From Promethearchaeota archaeon (GTDB lineage Archaea; Asgardarchaeota; Lokiarchaeia; Sigyniarchaeales; SOKP01), in assembly GCA_029838195.1 (NCBI GenBank), contig JALGVJ010000051.1, positions 1 through 23,200 on the forward strand: a stretch of 23,200 nt of DNA, written 5' to 3'. Below are positions 15,009-21,663 of the stretch, one piece after another. A program made the position numbers and the translations under genes. Below the pieces are notes generated by a model. It worked only from the letters and a program-made list of their open reading frames with translations, was not told where the DNA came from and did no database searches. Each line of letters begins with the position of its first letter. The stretch's first letter is position 1.

Positions 15009-16421
15009 ATGACCGATTCAAATTTAGATATTTCCATGCCAACCATGTTCAAGTCCTATTTTCCCGTATATTTATTATCTGGATTGTTTTCTTTAGCATT
15101 TAGTGGCATATACATAATGGTGGTTCCTTTATCTTCTTTATTTTGGCCAGATGAGCCTTATCATGCCTTGGAAATGGGCTTTCTCATTACTTCAATGTTT
15201 TGGGTGATATCTATCGCGGGTCTTTTCTTTGGACGTCTCATTGATAAGTATAGCAGGACTAATATTTTATTTCTCATCTCCCTACTTCGAGGAATTAGCA
15301 TGATAATGTTAAGTTTTACTACAATTGGACTTGGACTTCGCTCGTGGCTCTATTTTTATGTTTTCACCTTTATAATTGGGTTCTCAGCCGGAGGAAATTT
15401 TCCTACAATAGTATCTCTTTCTCATGATTTAGTTCCCGTTAATCACCGTTCTCGCTTTTTCGGGATTCATAAAATCACTCGTAATTCATTTCAATTAATG
15501 GGGTTTCTTTTGACGGGCATGTTAATTTATTTTAATGCGTGGAGATTTTTTTTTAGCGGAATAGGGATTGCTATTCTAATCTCCGGAATTTTGATGAAAT
15601 TAAAAATTAAGGAACCAAAAAGAGGAATACAAAGATCTGAACTAACTCACATTTTACAAGAGGAATCCATTATCTATAAATATCAACTAGATAGACAAAT
15701 GATGATGGAAACCATATTTAGCAAGACGAATATAGTAGCTTTAATCGAAGGAATTTTCACGAGCATGTACATGGGAAGTTTAACCATTCTTTTCCTCCCA
15801 TATATTCAAACAGAACCTCATAATATTTCACCTCTTGCTACGGGTATTTTTCTAGCATTGTTTGGCTTAACAGGAGGGTTAATTATTAATTTGCTGTTAG
15901 CACGATTATCCGATAACATGTCAAAAGAAAAATCTGAAAATCGACTATATTTAATCATTTTCTCAGTTGGCGGAGGTGCACTCACATTCGTCTTGCTATT
16001 CTTTATTCCGCTTCCTGAATTAACTGTTGAGCAAGGCAATGATATTCTTTTCATATTTTCTCATCCAATTATTTGGCTCATGGGGTTAATATATGTTACT
16101 ACTTCATCAATTTCAGCATTATATGACATAAACCAACCTCCCATTCTACAAGAAATTAATTTGCCTGAAGCTCAAGGACAAATCATGGCAATAAATCGCC
16201 TCTTGGAAAGTATTGGATTTGGGTCGGGACCGTTAATCGCAGGAATTTTGATCTACTTTACGAACCAAAATTATCAAATAGTGGCATTATTAATCGGTCT
16301 TTTTTCCATCCCGGGAATGATTTTATGGATCTTTGGAATCCACTGGTATCAAGAAGATAGTAAAAAAATAAGAAAAATACTTTTAGAAAGAGCTCAAGAA
16401 TTAAAAAATGAAAATTCATGA
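15009..16421 (+). CDS. MFS transporter (Spinster-like motifs)
   Basis: Motif A GRLIDKYSR, DLVPVNHRSRFFG, post-TM6 KEPKRG and EINLPEAQG; about 12 TM helices. Confidence 0.88.
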   Translation: MTDSNLDISMPTMFKSYFPVYLLSGLFSLAFSGIYIMVVPLSSLFWPDEPYHALEMGFLITSMFWVISIAGLFFGRLIDKYSRTNILFLISLLRGISMIMLSFTTIGLGLRSWLYFYVFTFIIGFSAGGNFPTIVSLSHDLVPVNHRSRFFGIHKITRNSFQLMGFLLTGMLIYFNAWRFFFSGIGIAILISGILMKLKIKEPKRGIQRSELTHILQEESIIYKYQLDRQMMMETIFSKTNIVALIEGIFTSMYMGSLTILFLPYIQTEPHNISPLATGIFLALFGLTGGLIINLLLARLSDNMSKEKSENRLYLIIFSVGGGALTFVLLFFIPLPELTVEQGNDILFIFSHPIIWLMGLIYVTTSSISALYDINQPPILQEINLPEAQGQIMAINRLLESIGFGSGPLIAGILIYFTNQNYQIVALLIGLFSIPGMILWIFGIHWYQEDSKKIRKILLERAQELKNENS

Positions 16422-16492: not shown

Positions 16493-17626
16493 TTATTTTA
16501 ATCCATACTCTTGTACAATTTTTGATATTTGCTCAAGTTTTTTTATATCTCCATTGGGGGGAAATTCATCAGAAACTCCAAGGATCAACCGGGGAGAAAA
16601 AAGATCTAAAACCTTTAAAGTAAATTTTTGAACCTGTTCGCAAGAATATTCCGAGAGAAAAAGAATAGAAGGGATTCCATCTAATAATATCTTTTCTCCT
16701 ATTGCTTTTTTAATTTCTTCTAATGAAACATCACCTTGAGGGAAGGGGGTTAAAGCTTCATATCCATCAAAAGGTAATTCAGAAAGAAATGGAAGTAAAT
16801 TCTTGATTGAACCATCCATGTGAATGTGGCAAAATTTACCTGCCTTTTTTAATTGATTTACACGTTGTTCATAATACGGAACTAAATATTTTTTAAAATA
16901 AGGAGGGCTGCTCAAGTTAGCATCGATATTTTCGCCAAAATTAACAATTTGCAGCGGAGAGCGTGCAATTTCATCGAACATTTTATTATCCCAAAGACTT
17001 AAAAAATGGATGAAATCCAATATCTCTTGAGGATATCGCTTTAAAAATAAAATCGTGCGAGAAAAACCCATATATTCAAGAATCAATTTTTGATAAGGAC
17101 TACGACCCAAATAAGTGCTAACAACCCCACTTTCTCCAAATAATTTTTCAGCTTTAAGAAAATTTTCGTTTGAAAAATGAATTTCGGAATTTTCTAAAAT
17201 ATATCGCATTATTTTAATGTCTTCAATGGTTTTAATGGGATATTCCGTAAGATGGCCTCCCAAGCCTCCTCCAATTGAACTCACTTCTCGTAAATTTCCT
17301 AAGGGCGTGAAATAATACTTGATAAATTCATCTTTTTTTCCTCCACGTTTAGTTTTGATTCTAATTTCCGCTTCTGGTTTAAATCGGGTTTCTAACAAAT
17401 TTAAATAAAGAGTCTCTTCACAATACCGTGGACTGCTCTTTAACATTTCATGAATTTCTAATTGAGACTTCTTGAAATATTTTTTAGGAATAGCATGGCT
17501 TTTAGATGGATTAAATCTTTTATACAACTTGTTTACCATGTACCAATAATAGATTCTGGGACTAAAAACCATGTTATCAACGGGCTTGCCCATAAAAATA
17601 TTAATTACACGCTCCTTTAAATTCAT
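16493..17626 (-). CDS. Uroporphyrinogen decarboxylase / MtaA-CmuA methyltransferase superfamily protein
   Basis: N-terminal ERVINIFMGKPVD, EYPIKTIED, SPPYFKKYLVPYY, HIHMDG, P.PQGDVSLEE, LLDGIP and ILGVSDEFPP. Confidence 0.8.
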   Translation of the reverse strand: MNLKERVINIFMGKPVDNMVFSPRIYYWYMVNKLYKRFNPSKSHAIPKKYFKKSQLEIHEMLKSSPRYCEETLYLNLLETRFKPEAEIRIKTKRGGKKDEFIKYYFTPLGNLREVSSIGGGLGGHLTEYPIKTIEDIKIMRYILENSEIHFSNENFLKAEKLFGESGVVSTYLGRSPYQKLILEYMGFSRTILFLKRYPQEILDFIHFLSLWDNKMFDEIARSPLQIVNFGENIDANLSSPPYFKKYLVPYYEQRVNQLKKAGKFCHIHMDGSIKNLLPFLSELPFDGYEALTPFPQGDVSLEEIKKAIGEKILLDGIPSILFLSEYSCEQVQKFTLKVLDLFSPRLILGVSDEFPPNGDIKKLEQISKIVQEYGLK

Positions 17627-18021: not shown

Positions 18022-19128
18022 GTGAAAAAATTGAGTGTAAAAGTATATTTTGAAGAAGAGGGAAATTTCTCTCTTGTAAAAAATAAAACCATAGCTATTA
18101 TAGGGTATGGCAACCAAGCAAGAGCACAAGCCTTAAACATGCGCGATTCAGGATTAAACATTATAATCGGAACCATAACTCGTGAACATGAGCAAAGGGC
18201 CAAGGAAGATAATTTCACTTGTTATCCCCTTTCTGATGCACTGAAAAAGGCCAGCATTTATTTCTTATTAATCTCAGATGATTTAATGGAAAAGCTCTAC
18301 CCGAATGACATCGAGCCGTTTCTCGAAAAAAATGATACGATCGTGTTATATAGCGGCTATAATGTTGCTTTTGGAAAAATAATCTTTCCAAAACATGTCA
18401 ATATCTTATTAATTTCCCCAAGAGTACCCGGAGAAGGTTTGCGAGAAAATTTTTTAACTAATAAGGGAGTGTTTAGCTTCATTCACGCGCATCAAGATTT
18501 CACCGGTAATGCCTTAAACATGTTGCTTGCTCTAAGTAAAGCGGTTGGTGCTTTATCCAGAGGAGCCATCGATATCACGCTACGGCAGCAAGCCATTTTA
18601 AATCTTTTTTTCGAGCAAACTCTCATTCAAGGATTTTTACAGATCATGATGAGGTCCATATTAACCTTAATCGAGAAAGGATATTCCCCGGAAGCAATTT
18701 TCGTCGAGTTATTTTTATCAGGAGAAGGAGGATATACTCTAGATAAAGTAATAGATGTAGGAATGATAAAACAAATGAATTTTCACTCACAAACTTCTCA
18801 ATATGGCCAAATGAGTCGGGGAACTAAGTTTAGAACGGTTGCCGGAGATATAGGGGCCATTCAAAAAAAAATATTCCAAGAAATAAATAATGGAGATTTC
18901 GCTTCCGAATGGGCTCGAGAGGAAAGTAAAATAAGACTTGCTCTCCTGAAATACCATGCAAGTAATATTAAATTTGCTGAAATTGAGAAGAAAGTAAGAG
19001 AAAATCTGGGCTTTCGAACACGAGATCTATCGCATGAAATCCAATATCCTTCTGAAGATCTCTTAGTCAAATATCCTCAGATCAAAAAAGAAATTGAAAT
19101 CATCAAATCATTTTATCGGAAATTATAA
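18022..19128 (+). CDS. ilvC: Ketol-acid reductoisomerase-like protein, paralog A (degenerate Rossmann and Asp site; intact partner-donated residues)
   Basis: IGYGNQARAQALNMRDSG, SGYN, SPRVPG, NLFFEQ, EAIFVELFLSGE, HSQTSQYG, GDFASEW. Start is uncertain (GTG 18022 or TTG 18031). Confidence 0.85.
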   Translation: MKKLSVKVYFEEEGNFSLVKNKTIAIIGYGNQARAQALNMRDSGLNIIIGTITREHEQRAKEDNFTCYPLSDALKKASIYFLLISDDLMEKLYPNDIEPFLEKNDTIVLYSGYNVAFGKIIFPKHVNILLISPRVPGEGLRENFLTNKGVFSFIHAHQDFTGNALNMLLALSKAVGALSRGAIDITLRQQAILNLFFEQTLIQGFLQIMMRSILTLIEKGYSPEAIFVELFLSGEGGYTLDKVIDVGMIKQMNFHSQTSQYGQMSRGTKFRTVAGDIGAIQKKIFQEINNGDFASEWAREESKIRLALLKYHASNIKFAEIEKKVRENLGFRTRDLSHEIQYPSEDLLVKYPQIKKEIEIIKSFYRKL

Positions 19129-19145
19129 TCAAGAGGGATAACAGC

Positions 19146-20237
19146 ATGACAAATATTTATAAAGAAAAGGATGCGGATTTGTCCATTTTGGAAGGAGTTA
19201 CCATAGGAATGATTGGTTATGGAAATCAATCTCGCAGTCAAGCTTTAAATTTGCGCGATCATGGTTTAACGGTTATCGTTGGGAATAGAAATGATGAATA
19301 TAAAAAAAGAGCTCAAGCAGATGGCTTTCCTACGTATTCAATTCCGGATACGGTCAAAAAAGCACGCGTTCTTTTTTTCTTAATTCCTGACGAAATAATG
19401 AGTAAGGTTTTCAAAAAACAAATAAAACCTTATCTTAAAAAGCATGATGCATTGATTTTCGCAAGTGGATATAATATAGCCTTTGGCTTGATCACCCCTC
19501 CCGAATTCATTGACGTGTTATTAATTGCTCCACGAATGATTGGAATTGGCGTGCGGGAAACTTTCCTTAACAAAGAAGGATATTTTTCTTTTATTGGAGT
19601 ACATCAAGATGCTTCAGGAGAAGCAAAACAAAAACTATTAGCTCTAAGTAAAGGAGTGGGAGGATTAACGAGAGCGGGGATTGAAGTTACTTTTAAAGAA
19701 GAAGCAGTGTTAGATCTATACTCTGAGCAAGGATTTAGTCCGGCGTTTAGCCAAATAATGATGAGACCCATCAGTATATTAAAAGAAGCGGGATATCCAG
19801 ATGAAGCCATTCTAATGGAAATCGTACTCTCCGGTAAAATGAAATACATCTTTAAAAGTATCATTGATAATGGAATTATCAATCAAATATTTTATTTGCC
19901 GGAAAGAGCTCAGTATGGTGCATTGAGTAGATGCTTGCGATTAAGGCACCCCATTGAAAAAATCGCTGAAATCCAACGAGAAATCGTTGATCACATTGAA
20001 AATGGAGGCTTTGCTAAGGAATGGGAAGCGTTTACTGCTAAATTAAAATTTAAATTCATTAAATTTATGGCTTCAAGAGTAGGATTTGCTAAACTGGAGA
20101 AACGGGTTCGCGAAAGTCTTAAAATGCCTGAGGTAGACTTGTGGGAAGAGGTGCCTTATCCCACTGAAGGTGATATTAAAAAGAAAAAAGAGATTTTAGA
20201 AGAACTTAGAAAATTTCAAGGATTTAAGGAATTCTAA
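19146..20237 (+). CDS. ilvC: Ketol-acid reductoisomerase-like protein, paralog B (intact D190/E194; degenerate partner-donated residues)
   Basis: IYKEKDADLS, IGYGNQSRSQALNLRDHG, LIPDE, FASGYN, APRMIG, FKEEAVLDLYSEQ, GGFAKEW. Starts 17 bp after paralog A with a GAGGG SD-like sequence. Confidence 0.88.
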   Translation: MTNIYKEKDADLSILEGVTIGMIGYGNQSRSQALNLRDHGLTVIVGNRNDEYKKRAQADGFPTYSIPDTVKKARVLFFLIPDEIMSKVFKKQIKPYLKKHDALIFASGYNIAFGLITPPEFIDVLLIAPRMIGIGVRETFLNKEGYFSFIGVHQDASGEAKQKLLALSKGVGGLTRAGIEVTFKEEAVLDLYSEQGFSPAFSQIMMRPISILKEAGYPDEAILMEIVLSGKMKYIFKSIIDNGIINQIFYLPERAQYGALSRCLRLRHPIEKIAEIQREIVDHIENGGFAKEWEAFTAKLKFKFIKFMASRVGFAKLEKRVRESLKMPEVDLWEEVPYPTEGDIKKKKEILEELRKFQGFKEF

Positions 20238-20442: not shown

Positions 20443-21663
20443 TCATTCCTTTTTTTTCAATAACACGATTAAAAAAATCCCGAAAAGGTTTAAACCAATT
20501 ACAACATAAAAGATTAAGGGAATTCCAATTAATACGTAAATAATTCCTACAGAAGCATACCCTAAAAAGCTAGCAGAATTAATAATAGCAGAGTTTGTTC
20601 CACTTGCTTCACGGTTTAAATCCATGGCTTGCTTGAATAATGCGGGCCAAATCATAGCAGATCCCACGTAAATCATGCCTGAAATCAAGATATAATGGAG
20701 AAAAGATTTTCCGTGAGGAAGAAAAATTGTTGATAACATCAATATAAATCCCGATAGCATCATTTTTAAGGGTGAAATCTTTTTTAAGAGATCTCCCGTA
20801 ATAGGGGAGAGAATAATAGAAATAAAACCATTCACCGTTAGGATCGTACTCACTATTGAAATGATCTCTTGATCTGAAATATTTTCAATTGACTTTCCTA
20901 TTTGTTCCATCAGCGTGTTCGTGAGGGTAATGACGCAGAAAAACGTGAAAAATCCGATGAGCCCTAAAATAATTATTTTTGAAGTTAAATTGTCCTTTAA
21001 TTGAAGATATGCAGCTCTAAATTTTGAATTCTGCTCATGCCGTACATTATTGGTTATAATATTAAATTCATGAGTCTTGGATCCCCCTAATTCACAATTT
21101 TTTGTAGCAAGCATGAAAAAAGTAAAAGCAAATATTGTTAAAATGGGATTTAAAAAAAAGATGAATCTCCATTCTCCAAGGATATTTGCAAAAACACCTG
21201 AAATAATGGCTCCTAAACTAACACCTATAGCTGCTGAGGAATTATAAAGCCCCATCATTAATCCCTTTTTCCGTGTGGGGGTAATTAAATTAAGAATCGC
21301 CAAAATCGTGGGATTAATCATCGAAAAACCAAGACCAAGAAGCAAGAAGGAAGTTAAAAACAAGAAATAATTTTTAATTAAAACTGAAACCAATACAAGC
21401 ACTAAACTGAATAAAAAGATAATAAACCCCAAAGAAACTACACTCCTTTTATCTACAATATCGGAAAAGGTTCCAGCAAATAATTGTAGGATAGAAAATG
21501 GAAAGATATAAAACGATATAGCGAGAGAAATCAAAGAAACTTCTTCCAAAAGAAAATTTTCCTTGAGAAGATTAAAAATAGGAATTATAGCATTCGTGCT
21601 AAGTGGACCTAACATGGAAGAAAAAAGTATTAGGTAATATTTTTTCTCAAAATGCTCTTCCAT
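20443..21663 (-). CDS. MFS transporter (DHA1/efflux-like)
   Basis: QLFAGTFSDIVDKR motif A, KKGLMMGLY, EWRFIF; about 12 TM helices. Confidence 0.88.
   Translation of the reverse strand: MEEHFEKKYYLILFSSMLGPLSTNAIIPIFNLLKENFLLEEVSLISLAISFYIFPFSILQLFAGTFSDIVDKRSVVSLGFIIFLFSLVLVLVSVLIKNYFLFLTSFLLLGLGFSMINPTILAILNLITPTRKKGLMMGLYNSSAAIGVSLGAIISGVFANILGEWRFIFFLNPILTIFAFTFFMLATKNCELGGSKTHEFNIITNNVRHEQNSKFRAAYLQLKDNLTSKIIILGLIGFFTFFCVITLTNTLMEQIGKSIENISDQEIISIVSTILTVNGFISIILSPITGDLLKKISPLKMMLSGFILMLSTIFLPHGKSFLHYILISGMIYVGSAMIWPALFKQAMDLNREASGTNSAIINSASFLGYASVGIIYVLIGIPLIFYVVIGLNLFGIFLIVLLKKKE

Follow-up and report, generated by a model that had tools for sequence, protein, structure and literature searches.

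Introduction

Ketol-acid reductoisomerase (KARI) has been studied intensively, as a target for herbicides and antibiotics and as a workhorse in the engineering of biofuels. In the literature searched, it is described only in the form of homo-oligomers or of internally duplicated monomers; each dimer of the known class I KARIs, which occur as homodimers or as dodecamers built from these, has two complete active sites that are identical. Here we describe two adjacent genes, A and B, located in a stretch of 23,200 nucleotides (hereafter, the window) from a Promethearchaeota archaeon (assembly GCA_029838195.1, contig JALGVJ010000051.1, positions 1 to 23,200). Both genes encode a class I KARI paralogue. 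Judging from their sequences, and with a probability that we estimate at about three in four, their products would form an obligate heterodimeric class I KARI with a single composite site.

In Sac-KARI, Mg(II) is bound by E227 and E231 from one chain and by D191 from the other, and Mg(I) is held by D191 and E195, so that D191 bridges both Mg ions (PMC5940873). The pocket of class I KARIs is formed by the N- and C-domains of one subunit and by the C-domain of the second; likewise, in ApnO the residue in the place of Glu230 and the Asp190 equivalent belong to different subunits (PMC13753588). E230 is a ligand of Mg(II), and S251 hydrogen-bonds bound ligands (PMC12202844). On the basis of these published structures, the Rossmann domain with Glu186, Asp190 and Glu194 is assigned to the cis half of a site, and Glu226, Glu230 and the Ser loop to the trans half. 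A first-pass annotation of the window, made from the sequence alone, had relied on this division of Asp190/Glu194 and Glu226/Glu230/Ser loop between the two chains, and the three papers bear it out.

Class II KARIs (E. coli, plants) have a single Rossmann domain and a pseudo-dimeric pair of knot domains, the first knot half supplying the Asp/Glu pair and the second half Glu/Glu/Ser. This is an internal duplication in one chain, with no second Rossmann domain, and results in one site per knotted pair. Individual residues of the KARI active site are taken here as essential.

The passage from homomer to heteromer is an established concept. Other heteromers derived from duplicated homomers are yeast NAD-isocitrate dehydrogenase IDH1/IDH2 and the trypanosome deoxyhypusine synthase paralogues. 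For Fcy1, it was shown experimentally that a duplicated homodimer can become an obligate heteromer by one loss-of-function mutation per copy (PMC10888846). The two-gene form of KARI, in contrast, was found in no KARI paper searched. The first-pass annotation knew of no described heterodimeric KARI, and full-text literature searches returned none, nor any pseudoenzyme KARI or Asgard KARI.

Two KARI paralogues with complementary sets of metal ligands

Genes A and B are co-oriented and 17 nt apart. BLASTP aligns their products with 43% identity, 65% positives and zero gaps over A8-364 and B4-360 (357 residues), and therefore the constant four-residue offset reported in the first-pass annotation holds along the whole proteins. 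As to domain architecture, a class I KARI is recognized by a Rossmann KARI_N domain followed by a single knotted KARI_C domain in a chain of ~330-370 aa. This is the arrangement of both A (Pfam E-values of 8.7e-45 for KARI_N and 6.5e-17 for KARI_C) and B (6.3e-51 and 1.1e-15). A class II enzyme would have two KARI_C domains in a chain of ~490 aa, while A and B (368 and 363 aa) have one each, and reach only 69-73 bits with the class II model NF003557. It should be noted that both proteins fall below the NCBIfam equivalog cut-offs for KARI, set at 336 bits for NF004017 and 226.15 bits for TIGR00465, A scoring 221.4 and 199.7 bits and B 233.7 and 200.9 bits, respectively.

The nearest protein of solved structure is the Sulfolobus Sso-KARI (6jcv; E = 3e-66 for B). 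Sulfolobus-type class I KARIs (6jcv; Sac-KARI, PMC5940873) resemble A and B in fold and domain order, and a two-Mg site spanning the intertwined dimer is a common feature. The subfamily is defined here by the motifs FASGYN (Ser for His107), APRM(I/V)G (Arg for Lys130) and HSxTSQYG, which it shares with the Sulfolobus enzymes, and by 6jcv as the nearest solved structure. The N-domain motifs are present in B and in all the intact single genes; A has degenerate versions of both, and B lacks HSxTSQYG. The Arg for Lys in APRM and the Ser for His in FASGY are subfamily traits common to active Sulfolobus KARI, and not defects.

All the motifs quoted in the first-pass annotation are present, as verified codon by codon. 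On the Rossmann side, A reads LISDD, SPRVPG and GTITRE, and B reads LIPDE, ASGY, APRMIG and GNRNDE. Along the knot helices and the substrate loop, A has Q190, N194, E198, E229, E235 and H255-SQTSQYG, and B has E186, D190, E194, E225, K231 and L251-PERAQYG. Thus, A carries Gln and Asn at the Glu186 and Asp190 positions, and B carries Lys at the Glu230 position; the substrate Ser loop (S249/S251 region, HSxTSQYG) is found in A and is absent from B. Neither chain alone has the full set of Mg ligands (Asp190, Glu194, Glu226, Glu230) plus Glu186, which becomes complete only when B in cis is combined with A in trans.

A and B differ from Sso-KARI in a C-terminal extension of ~35 residues, besides scoring under the NCBIfam KARI cut-offs. 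The extension (A ~331-368, B ~327-363) is typical of the archaeal long-type KARIs of this clade, and is lacking not only in Sso-KARI but also in some relatives from bacteria and from more distant Asgard archaea. Within it, Phe357 never varies in B or in the intact singles, and is lost in A.

Complementary losses are conserved among relatives

An unbiased test of reciprocity took in every alignment position whose conservation among 68 single genes reached 95% or more (83 columns). Fourteen of these columns are lost in A only, all of them at B-positions 30-199, i.e. in the N-domain and first knot helix; they comprise the cofactor loop, PDE, FASGYN, APRMIG, Glu186, Asp190 and the end of the helix (198-199). 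Of the seven columns lost in B only, six lie at 231-255 (the Glu230 equivalent and H-S-x-T-S). The partition of losses was significant on the genome sets (Fisher exact p = 1.3e-4) and again on database sets of 36 A-type, 33 B-type and 127 intact sequences (p = 6e-4).

The database sets come from a collection of 5.8 billion proteins, which was searched with A and with B and yielded 196 full-length relatives. In addition to the 127 intact proteins, there are 36 A-types, in which Asp190 is lost and the trans residues are kept, and 33 B-types, in which the reverse is true, and no mixed form. The reciprocal pattern recurs in these 36 A-type and 33 B-type clusters, in each of the 11 full-length pair loci that were read and in a damaged twelfth one, which is more than chance would give, and among the relatives the kind of substitution is conserved. 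The replacing residues, however, are heterogeneous. The Asp190 position of A-types is occupied by Ser (14), Asn (7), Lys (7), Gly (2) or, in the rest, other non-Asp residues, and the Glu186 position by Gln or Ala. The Glu230 position of B-types is occupied by Lys (9), Gln (8), Asn (7), Arg (4) and, in the remainder, Trp, Ala or Thr, and the loop 251-255 is variable. Apart from a few positions (S132 and Q190 of A, R/K254 of B), such heterogeneity points to a relaxation of constraint, and not to a new chemistry that is conserved.

The retained halves, in contrast, are invariant. Glu235, Thr239, His255, Ser256, Thr258 and Ser259 are kept in 36/36 A-types, and E229 in all the seven A-types from the genomes; Glu186, Asp190 and Glu194 are kept in 33/33 B-types. 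A site made of wholly conserved residues is obtained only from B in cis and A in trans, which at the sequence level supports the first-pass proposal that an A:B dimer would rebuild exactly one complete site.

The pair is inherited as a unit and excludes intact single genes

The genome survey began with 41 close relatives and was widened to 161 genomes of the class, in which three kinds of KARI were found: a short canonical type, located within an ilvB-ilvN-ilvC-ilvD operon and only in two sister families; a long, Sulfolobus-like single gene; and the A+B pair. Seven of the 161 genomes contain the pair (G000, G001, G008, G012, G022, G030 and G160) and 78 the single long-type gene, and in none of them does the pair occur together with an intact gene of the long type. 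A search of six pair genomes at E <= 1e-3 turned up no KARI-family gene other than the pair, and no full-length KARI gene besides A and B is present in the source genome. The single long-type genes that were read are all intact (~27 of the 78, or ~70 with the loci from a scan of species genomes). The latter scan added one more pair (L060), and its singles come from archaea and bacteria.

The gene order is A, then B, in each of the 11 full-length loci. Ten of the pairs are adjacent, with a spacing of 4-58 nt; in the remaining one, from G008, two unrelated ORFs separate A from B by 2.8 kb. A B-type gene was found directly downstream of the A-type in 4/4 cases checked on long contigs, and for 14 A/B cluster pairs the longest contig is equally long in both members. 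A damaged twelfth locus (in G012) holds both genes as well. No A-type or B-type gene was found on its own, a result in favour of the first-pass reading, and every intact protein checked in its genome context was single.

In the maximum-likelihood tree, the A-types form one clade and the B-types another, each with 100/99 support, nested among intact singles from one and the same archaeal family; some intact singles form a small group that is sister either to B (87/73) or to A+B. The inner topology, ((G022,G160),(G008,(G030,(G000,G001)))), is identical in the two clades, and the pairwise distances of A and of B over 11 genomes correlate (r = 0.87, Mantel p = 2e-4), with A evolving ~1.25 times faster than B. 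The single clades and the identical topology imply one duplication inherited as a unit, and several independent origins of the pair are ruled out by the tree. As read from these phylogenetic data, the history of the pair is one of a single duplication, followed by complementary degeneration and co-inheritance, and the many pairs reveal long-term purifying selection on complementary halves.

A different tandem KARI pair was observed in Anaerolineales bacteria (L116, L119, L121). Here the second copy is intact, and the upstream copy (GYGHL / EADIDLFIEQ / EMYMDEEMEMV / VHGPTALY) keeps the four acidic ligands and has a changed Ser loop, so that the pattern is not reciprocal. Some Anaerolineae relatives (L110, L128-L130, L132, L136, L137) have frames of 508-632 aa, consisting of KARI with an extra C-terminal part.

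Predicted structure of the A:B complex

The complex of A and B was predicted using a 6-row alignment for each of the two proteins. The score was 0.90, compared with 0.00 for the best control; in the calibration, 58 of 80 solved complexes came up to this mark, as did 2 of 110 mismatched pairs. Between runs, at least 92% of contacts agreed, with a partner pLDDT (predicted local distance difference test) of at least 88. About 400 contacts form an intertwined knot. Residues 81-83 and 130-132 on the Rossmann side of B touch A, and L189 of B touches A 225/226, which fits the composite site as modelled. The C-terminal tail of B lies at the interface in the predicted complex.

Proposed mechanism and alternative explanations

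A sequence pattern of reciprocal losses, conserved among relatives, co-inherited and exclusive with intact single genes, is what the surveyed genomes and proteins display. We infer that the two chains physically heterodimerize and that neither homodimer is active. According to the proposed mechanism, an ancestral homodimeric class I KARI gene of the Sulfolobus-like type (Ser107/Arg130) would have been duplicated in tandem. Copy A would then have lost the cis half of the site, that is, the Rossmann-side contacts, Glu186 and the Mg-bridging Asp190, and copy B the trans half, that is, the Glu230 equivalent and the H-S-x-T-S substrate loop. In the intertwined A:B dimer, the live site would be made of the Rossmann domain and E186/D190/E194 of B together with E229/E235/H255-S-x-T-S of A, and would run an Mg-dependent, NAD(P)H-dependent reaction of the KARI type. 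The mirror site (Rossmann domain and helix of A, loop of B) would be dead, and A:A and B:B dimers would each be without one essential half. As far as the residues allow one to judge, the dimer most likely performs, at a single site, the KARI reaction or the reductase half of it, and the substrate is most likely 2-acetolactate or another 2-hydroxy-3-keto or 2-keto acid.

Several observations weigh against this interpretation. Some of the changed positions look re-fixed (Arg/Lys254 in 27/33 B-types; S132 in 33/36 and Q190 in 31/36 A-types), and the A-side site could retain some ligand binding, given that GYGNQ and a large part of the Rossmann fold are preserved in A. In the twelfth locus, from a MAG (metagenome-assembled genome) that is 86% complete, both genes look truncated, either because of a deletion across the A/B junction or because of a mis-assembly. 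Since all the pairs descend from one duplication, the first losses in A and in B are a single event each, and the number of pairs does not count as independent origins. In the modelling suggested in the first-pass annotation, A:B passed, but the prediction does not separate A:B from A:A or B:B, and because KARI homodimers have already been solved, the pass may reflect mere likeness to them. Finally, the source genome has no canonical acetolactate synthase (acetohydroxyacid synthase, AHAS) large subunit (408 bits against a cut-off of 538) and no small subunit (ilvN), and the pair lies outside any ilv operon, which makes a role in branched-chain amino acid synthesis doubtful.

The last point is also an argument for a variant in which the heterodimer and its composite site are real, but the substrate is another 2-keto or 2-hydroxy-3-keto acid and the enzyme is not a branched-chain amino acid KARI. 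This we consider possible, if rather unlikely. In its favour, the classical ilvB-N-C-D operon of the sister families uses a different, short KARI; two relatives (G029 and G037) carry both the canonical and the long type; and metal transporter-like or acyl-CoA synthetase genes adjoin the pair in other lineages. The composite site, however, holds the full ligand set of active KARIs, and the nearest solved protein, Sso-KARI, which we take to be active in vitro, is deposited as a ketol-acid reductoisomerase. Moreover, the genome does have an AHAS-like thiamine diphosphate (ThDP) enzyme and three IlvD-family genes. An extension of the heterodimer hypothesis, about which we are even more tentative, is that A:B would be a natural, long-lived obligate KARI and an in-trans counterpart of class II, reached by complementary degeneration, whose dead half-site (GYGNQ and S132/Q190 of A, R/K254 of B) may have become a regulatory ligand site, and which may serve a pathway other than the classical synthesis of Val, Ile and Leu.

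It appears improbable that the B homodimer is the only enzyme, working by an altered chemistry without the Glu230 ligand and the Ser loop, with A as a regulatory or scaffold protein or as an unrelated pseudoenzyme. B does retain the whole Rossmann side and E186/D190/E194, A evolves faster, and the NCBI pipeline names both 'NAD(P)-binding domain-containing protein'. Yet the trans half of a B:B site would consist of freely varying positions (K, Q, N, R, W or A at 231, and the loop 251-255), and A, though faster, keeps E235, H255, S256, T258 and S259 in every cluster, a retention which makes sense only if these residues face a working site, and which would be left unexplained. Simple decay of one copy, a pseudogene in the making whose reciprocity is coincidental, is the least credible explanation by far. 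It might be suggested by the loss in A of 18 of ~116 strictly conserved columns and by the truncated look of both G012 copies. However, neither copy decays: both ORFs are intact in 11 loci across deep divergence (p-distances of 0.4-0.5), the losses are spatially partitioned while the retained residues are invariant, and none of the 196 proteins is a mixed or singly occurring degenerate form. Decay of one copy, which had been raised in the first-pass annotation, is thus ruled out by the conservation evidence.

If the obligate heterodimer is accepted, A and B are unlike known class I KARIs in that no chain has a complete ligand set and two genes would be needed. They would resemble class II KARI in having one site per knotted pair, but each half is encoded by its own gene, and A still has a vestigial Rossmann domain. 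Similarly, ApnO and BurG form a knotted dimer like KARI, with pocket residues from both subunits; they are, however, homodimers re-specialized through conserved new residues, such as His/Zn in ApnO (PMC13753588), whereas in A and B the residues at the changed positions vary, and the KARI ligand set is retained in the composite site. The parallel with Fcy1 (PMC10888846) would lie in the duplication of a homodimer, the failure of each copy alone, and an asymmetric, active mixed dimer. Fcy1 belongs to another enzyme family and to laboratory evolution, while the A/B pair occurs in nature, is old and has been retained in no fewer than 33-36 sequence clusters of Asgard archaea. If true, the pair would therefore be a clear natural case of a homomer turned into an obligate heteromer by complementary loss, with one live and one dead site, and a present-day parallel to a possible intermediate linking the two KARI classes. 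Annotation pipelines label these genes either as ordinary KARI or with a generic NAD(P)-binding name, which has consequences for the metabolic reconstruction of Asgard archaea. The lack of canonical acetolactate synthase in these genomes also raises the question of the role of this KARI subfamily there.

Genomic neighbourhood and pathway context

The positions of the genes, of the diagnostic codons and of the related loci are given in Table 1. The short spacer between A and B and the Shine-Dalgarno (SD)-like motif within it suggest co-transcription and coupled translation of the two genes.

Table 1. Location of the features discussed in the text. Positions with no prefix are those of the window; the others carry a genome or locus handle.
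Feature	Position	Strand	Remarks
Gene A	18022-19128	+	GTG start, 368 aa; KARI paralogue
Gene B	19146-20237	+	ATG start, 363 aa; KARI paralogue
A/B spacer	19129-19145	+	17 nt; SD-like GAGGG at 19133-19137, 8 nt ahead of the ATG of B
A codons Q190-E198 (QQAILN194LFFE)	18589-18615	+	Equivalents of Glu186 and Mg-bridging Asp190 lost
A codons E229-G262 (ELFLSGE235, H255SQTSQYG)	18706-18807	+	Trans Mg ligands and substrate Ser loop retained
B codons E186-E194 (EEAVLD190LYSE194)	19701-19727	+	Cis Mg ligands retained
B codons K231-G258	19836-19919	+	Glu230 equivalent is Lys; Ser loop is LPERAQYG
Major facilitator superfamily (MFS) transporter genes	15009-16421 and 20443-21663		Either side of the pair
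Uroporphyrinogen decarboxylase (URO-D)-like gene	16493-17626	-	Divergent, upstream of the pair; Pfam E = 1.7e-8, C-terminal half only
Damaged pair of G012 (L022)	C57:672-2530		A ends near residue 287-323; B without the first ~27 residues and the C-terminal tail
AHAS-like ThDP enzyme and IlvD-family dehydratase	G000:C39:11168-22391 (L139)		6 kb apart; dehydratase 650 bits, cut-off 618
Classical ilvB-ilvN-ilvC-ilvD operon	G040:C60:3234-8312		Equivalents in G027, G029, G031, G035-G037, G039
~478-aa protein	L140:4550-5986, L141:4509-5945, L086:2446-3936, L060:3-1067, L059:8090-9103		Near the pair in other lineages
NIPA-type Mg transporter gene	L075:6271-7089, L142:2906-3727		Adjoins the pair in two further lineages

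The source genome is a 4.5-Mb MAG in 94 contigs, ~97% complete. Besides the AHAS-like ThDP enzymes, which score below the cut-off, and the three IlvD-family genes, at least one of which adjoins sugar-type dehydrogenases, it contains a weak IlvE-like match. At the L139 locus, a DNA methyltransferase gene lies between the ThDP and IlvD genes, and two Gfo/Idh/MocA-type dehydrogenases lie beside the dehydratase. This ThDP-IlvD pairing may serve sugar-acid metabolism rather than Val/Ile synthesis, because it recurs in relatives without any KARI. Similarly, IlvD-family and LeuB-like genes are uninformative, being near-universal in the group, including genomes without KARI. The distribution of canonical AHAS and ilvN follows that of the short canonical KARI only. 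The presence in G029 and G037 of an intact long-type KARI beside that of the canonical operon hints that housekeeping synthesis of branched-chain amino acids may not be the task of the long type.

The neighbourhood of the single long-type genes of Promethearchaeota (L062-L104) is conserved, with a small GTPase directly upstream (32 loci), an opposite-strand transporter of the DMT type downstream (27) and alpha subunits of ADP-forming acyl-CoA synthetases (25), but indicates no pathway. The pair, in turn, has no ilvB, ilvN or ilvD in its neighbourhood; a gene for an MBL-fold protein is a further neighbour. Across lineages, the neighbours of the pair show no overall conservation and give no guide to the substrate, divalent-metal transporter-like or acyl-CoA synthetase genes adjoining it in some of them.

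In four other lineages, the gene immediately upstream of A encodes a protein of ~478 aa without Pfam match, which is also encoded 2 kb downstream of the pair in the sister genome; tblastn found no copy in the source genome. Its copies are 58-92% identical, a conservation above that of A or B, and language-model features group it with Nramp-type divalent-metal transporters (score 0.98). Together with the NIPA-type genes, two unrelated families of metal transporters are thus found near the pair, which could be due to chance or could be tied to the metal requirement of the enzyme.

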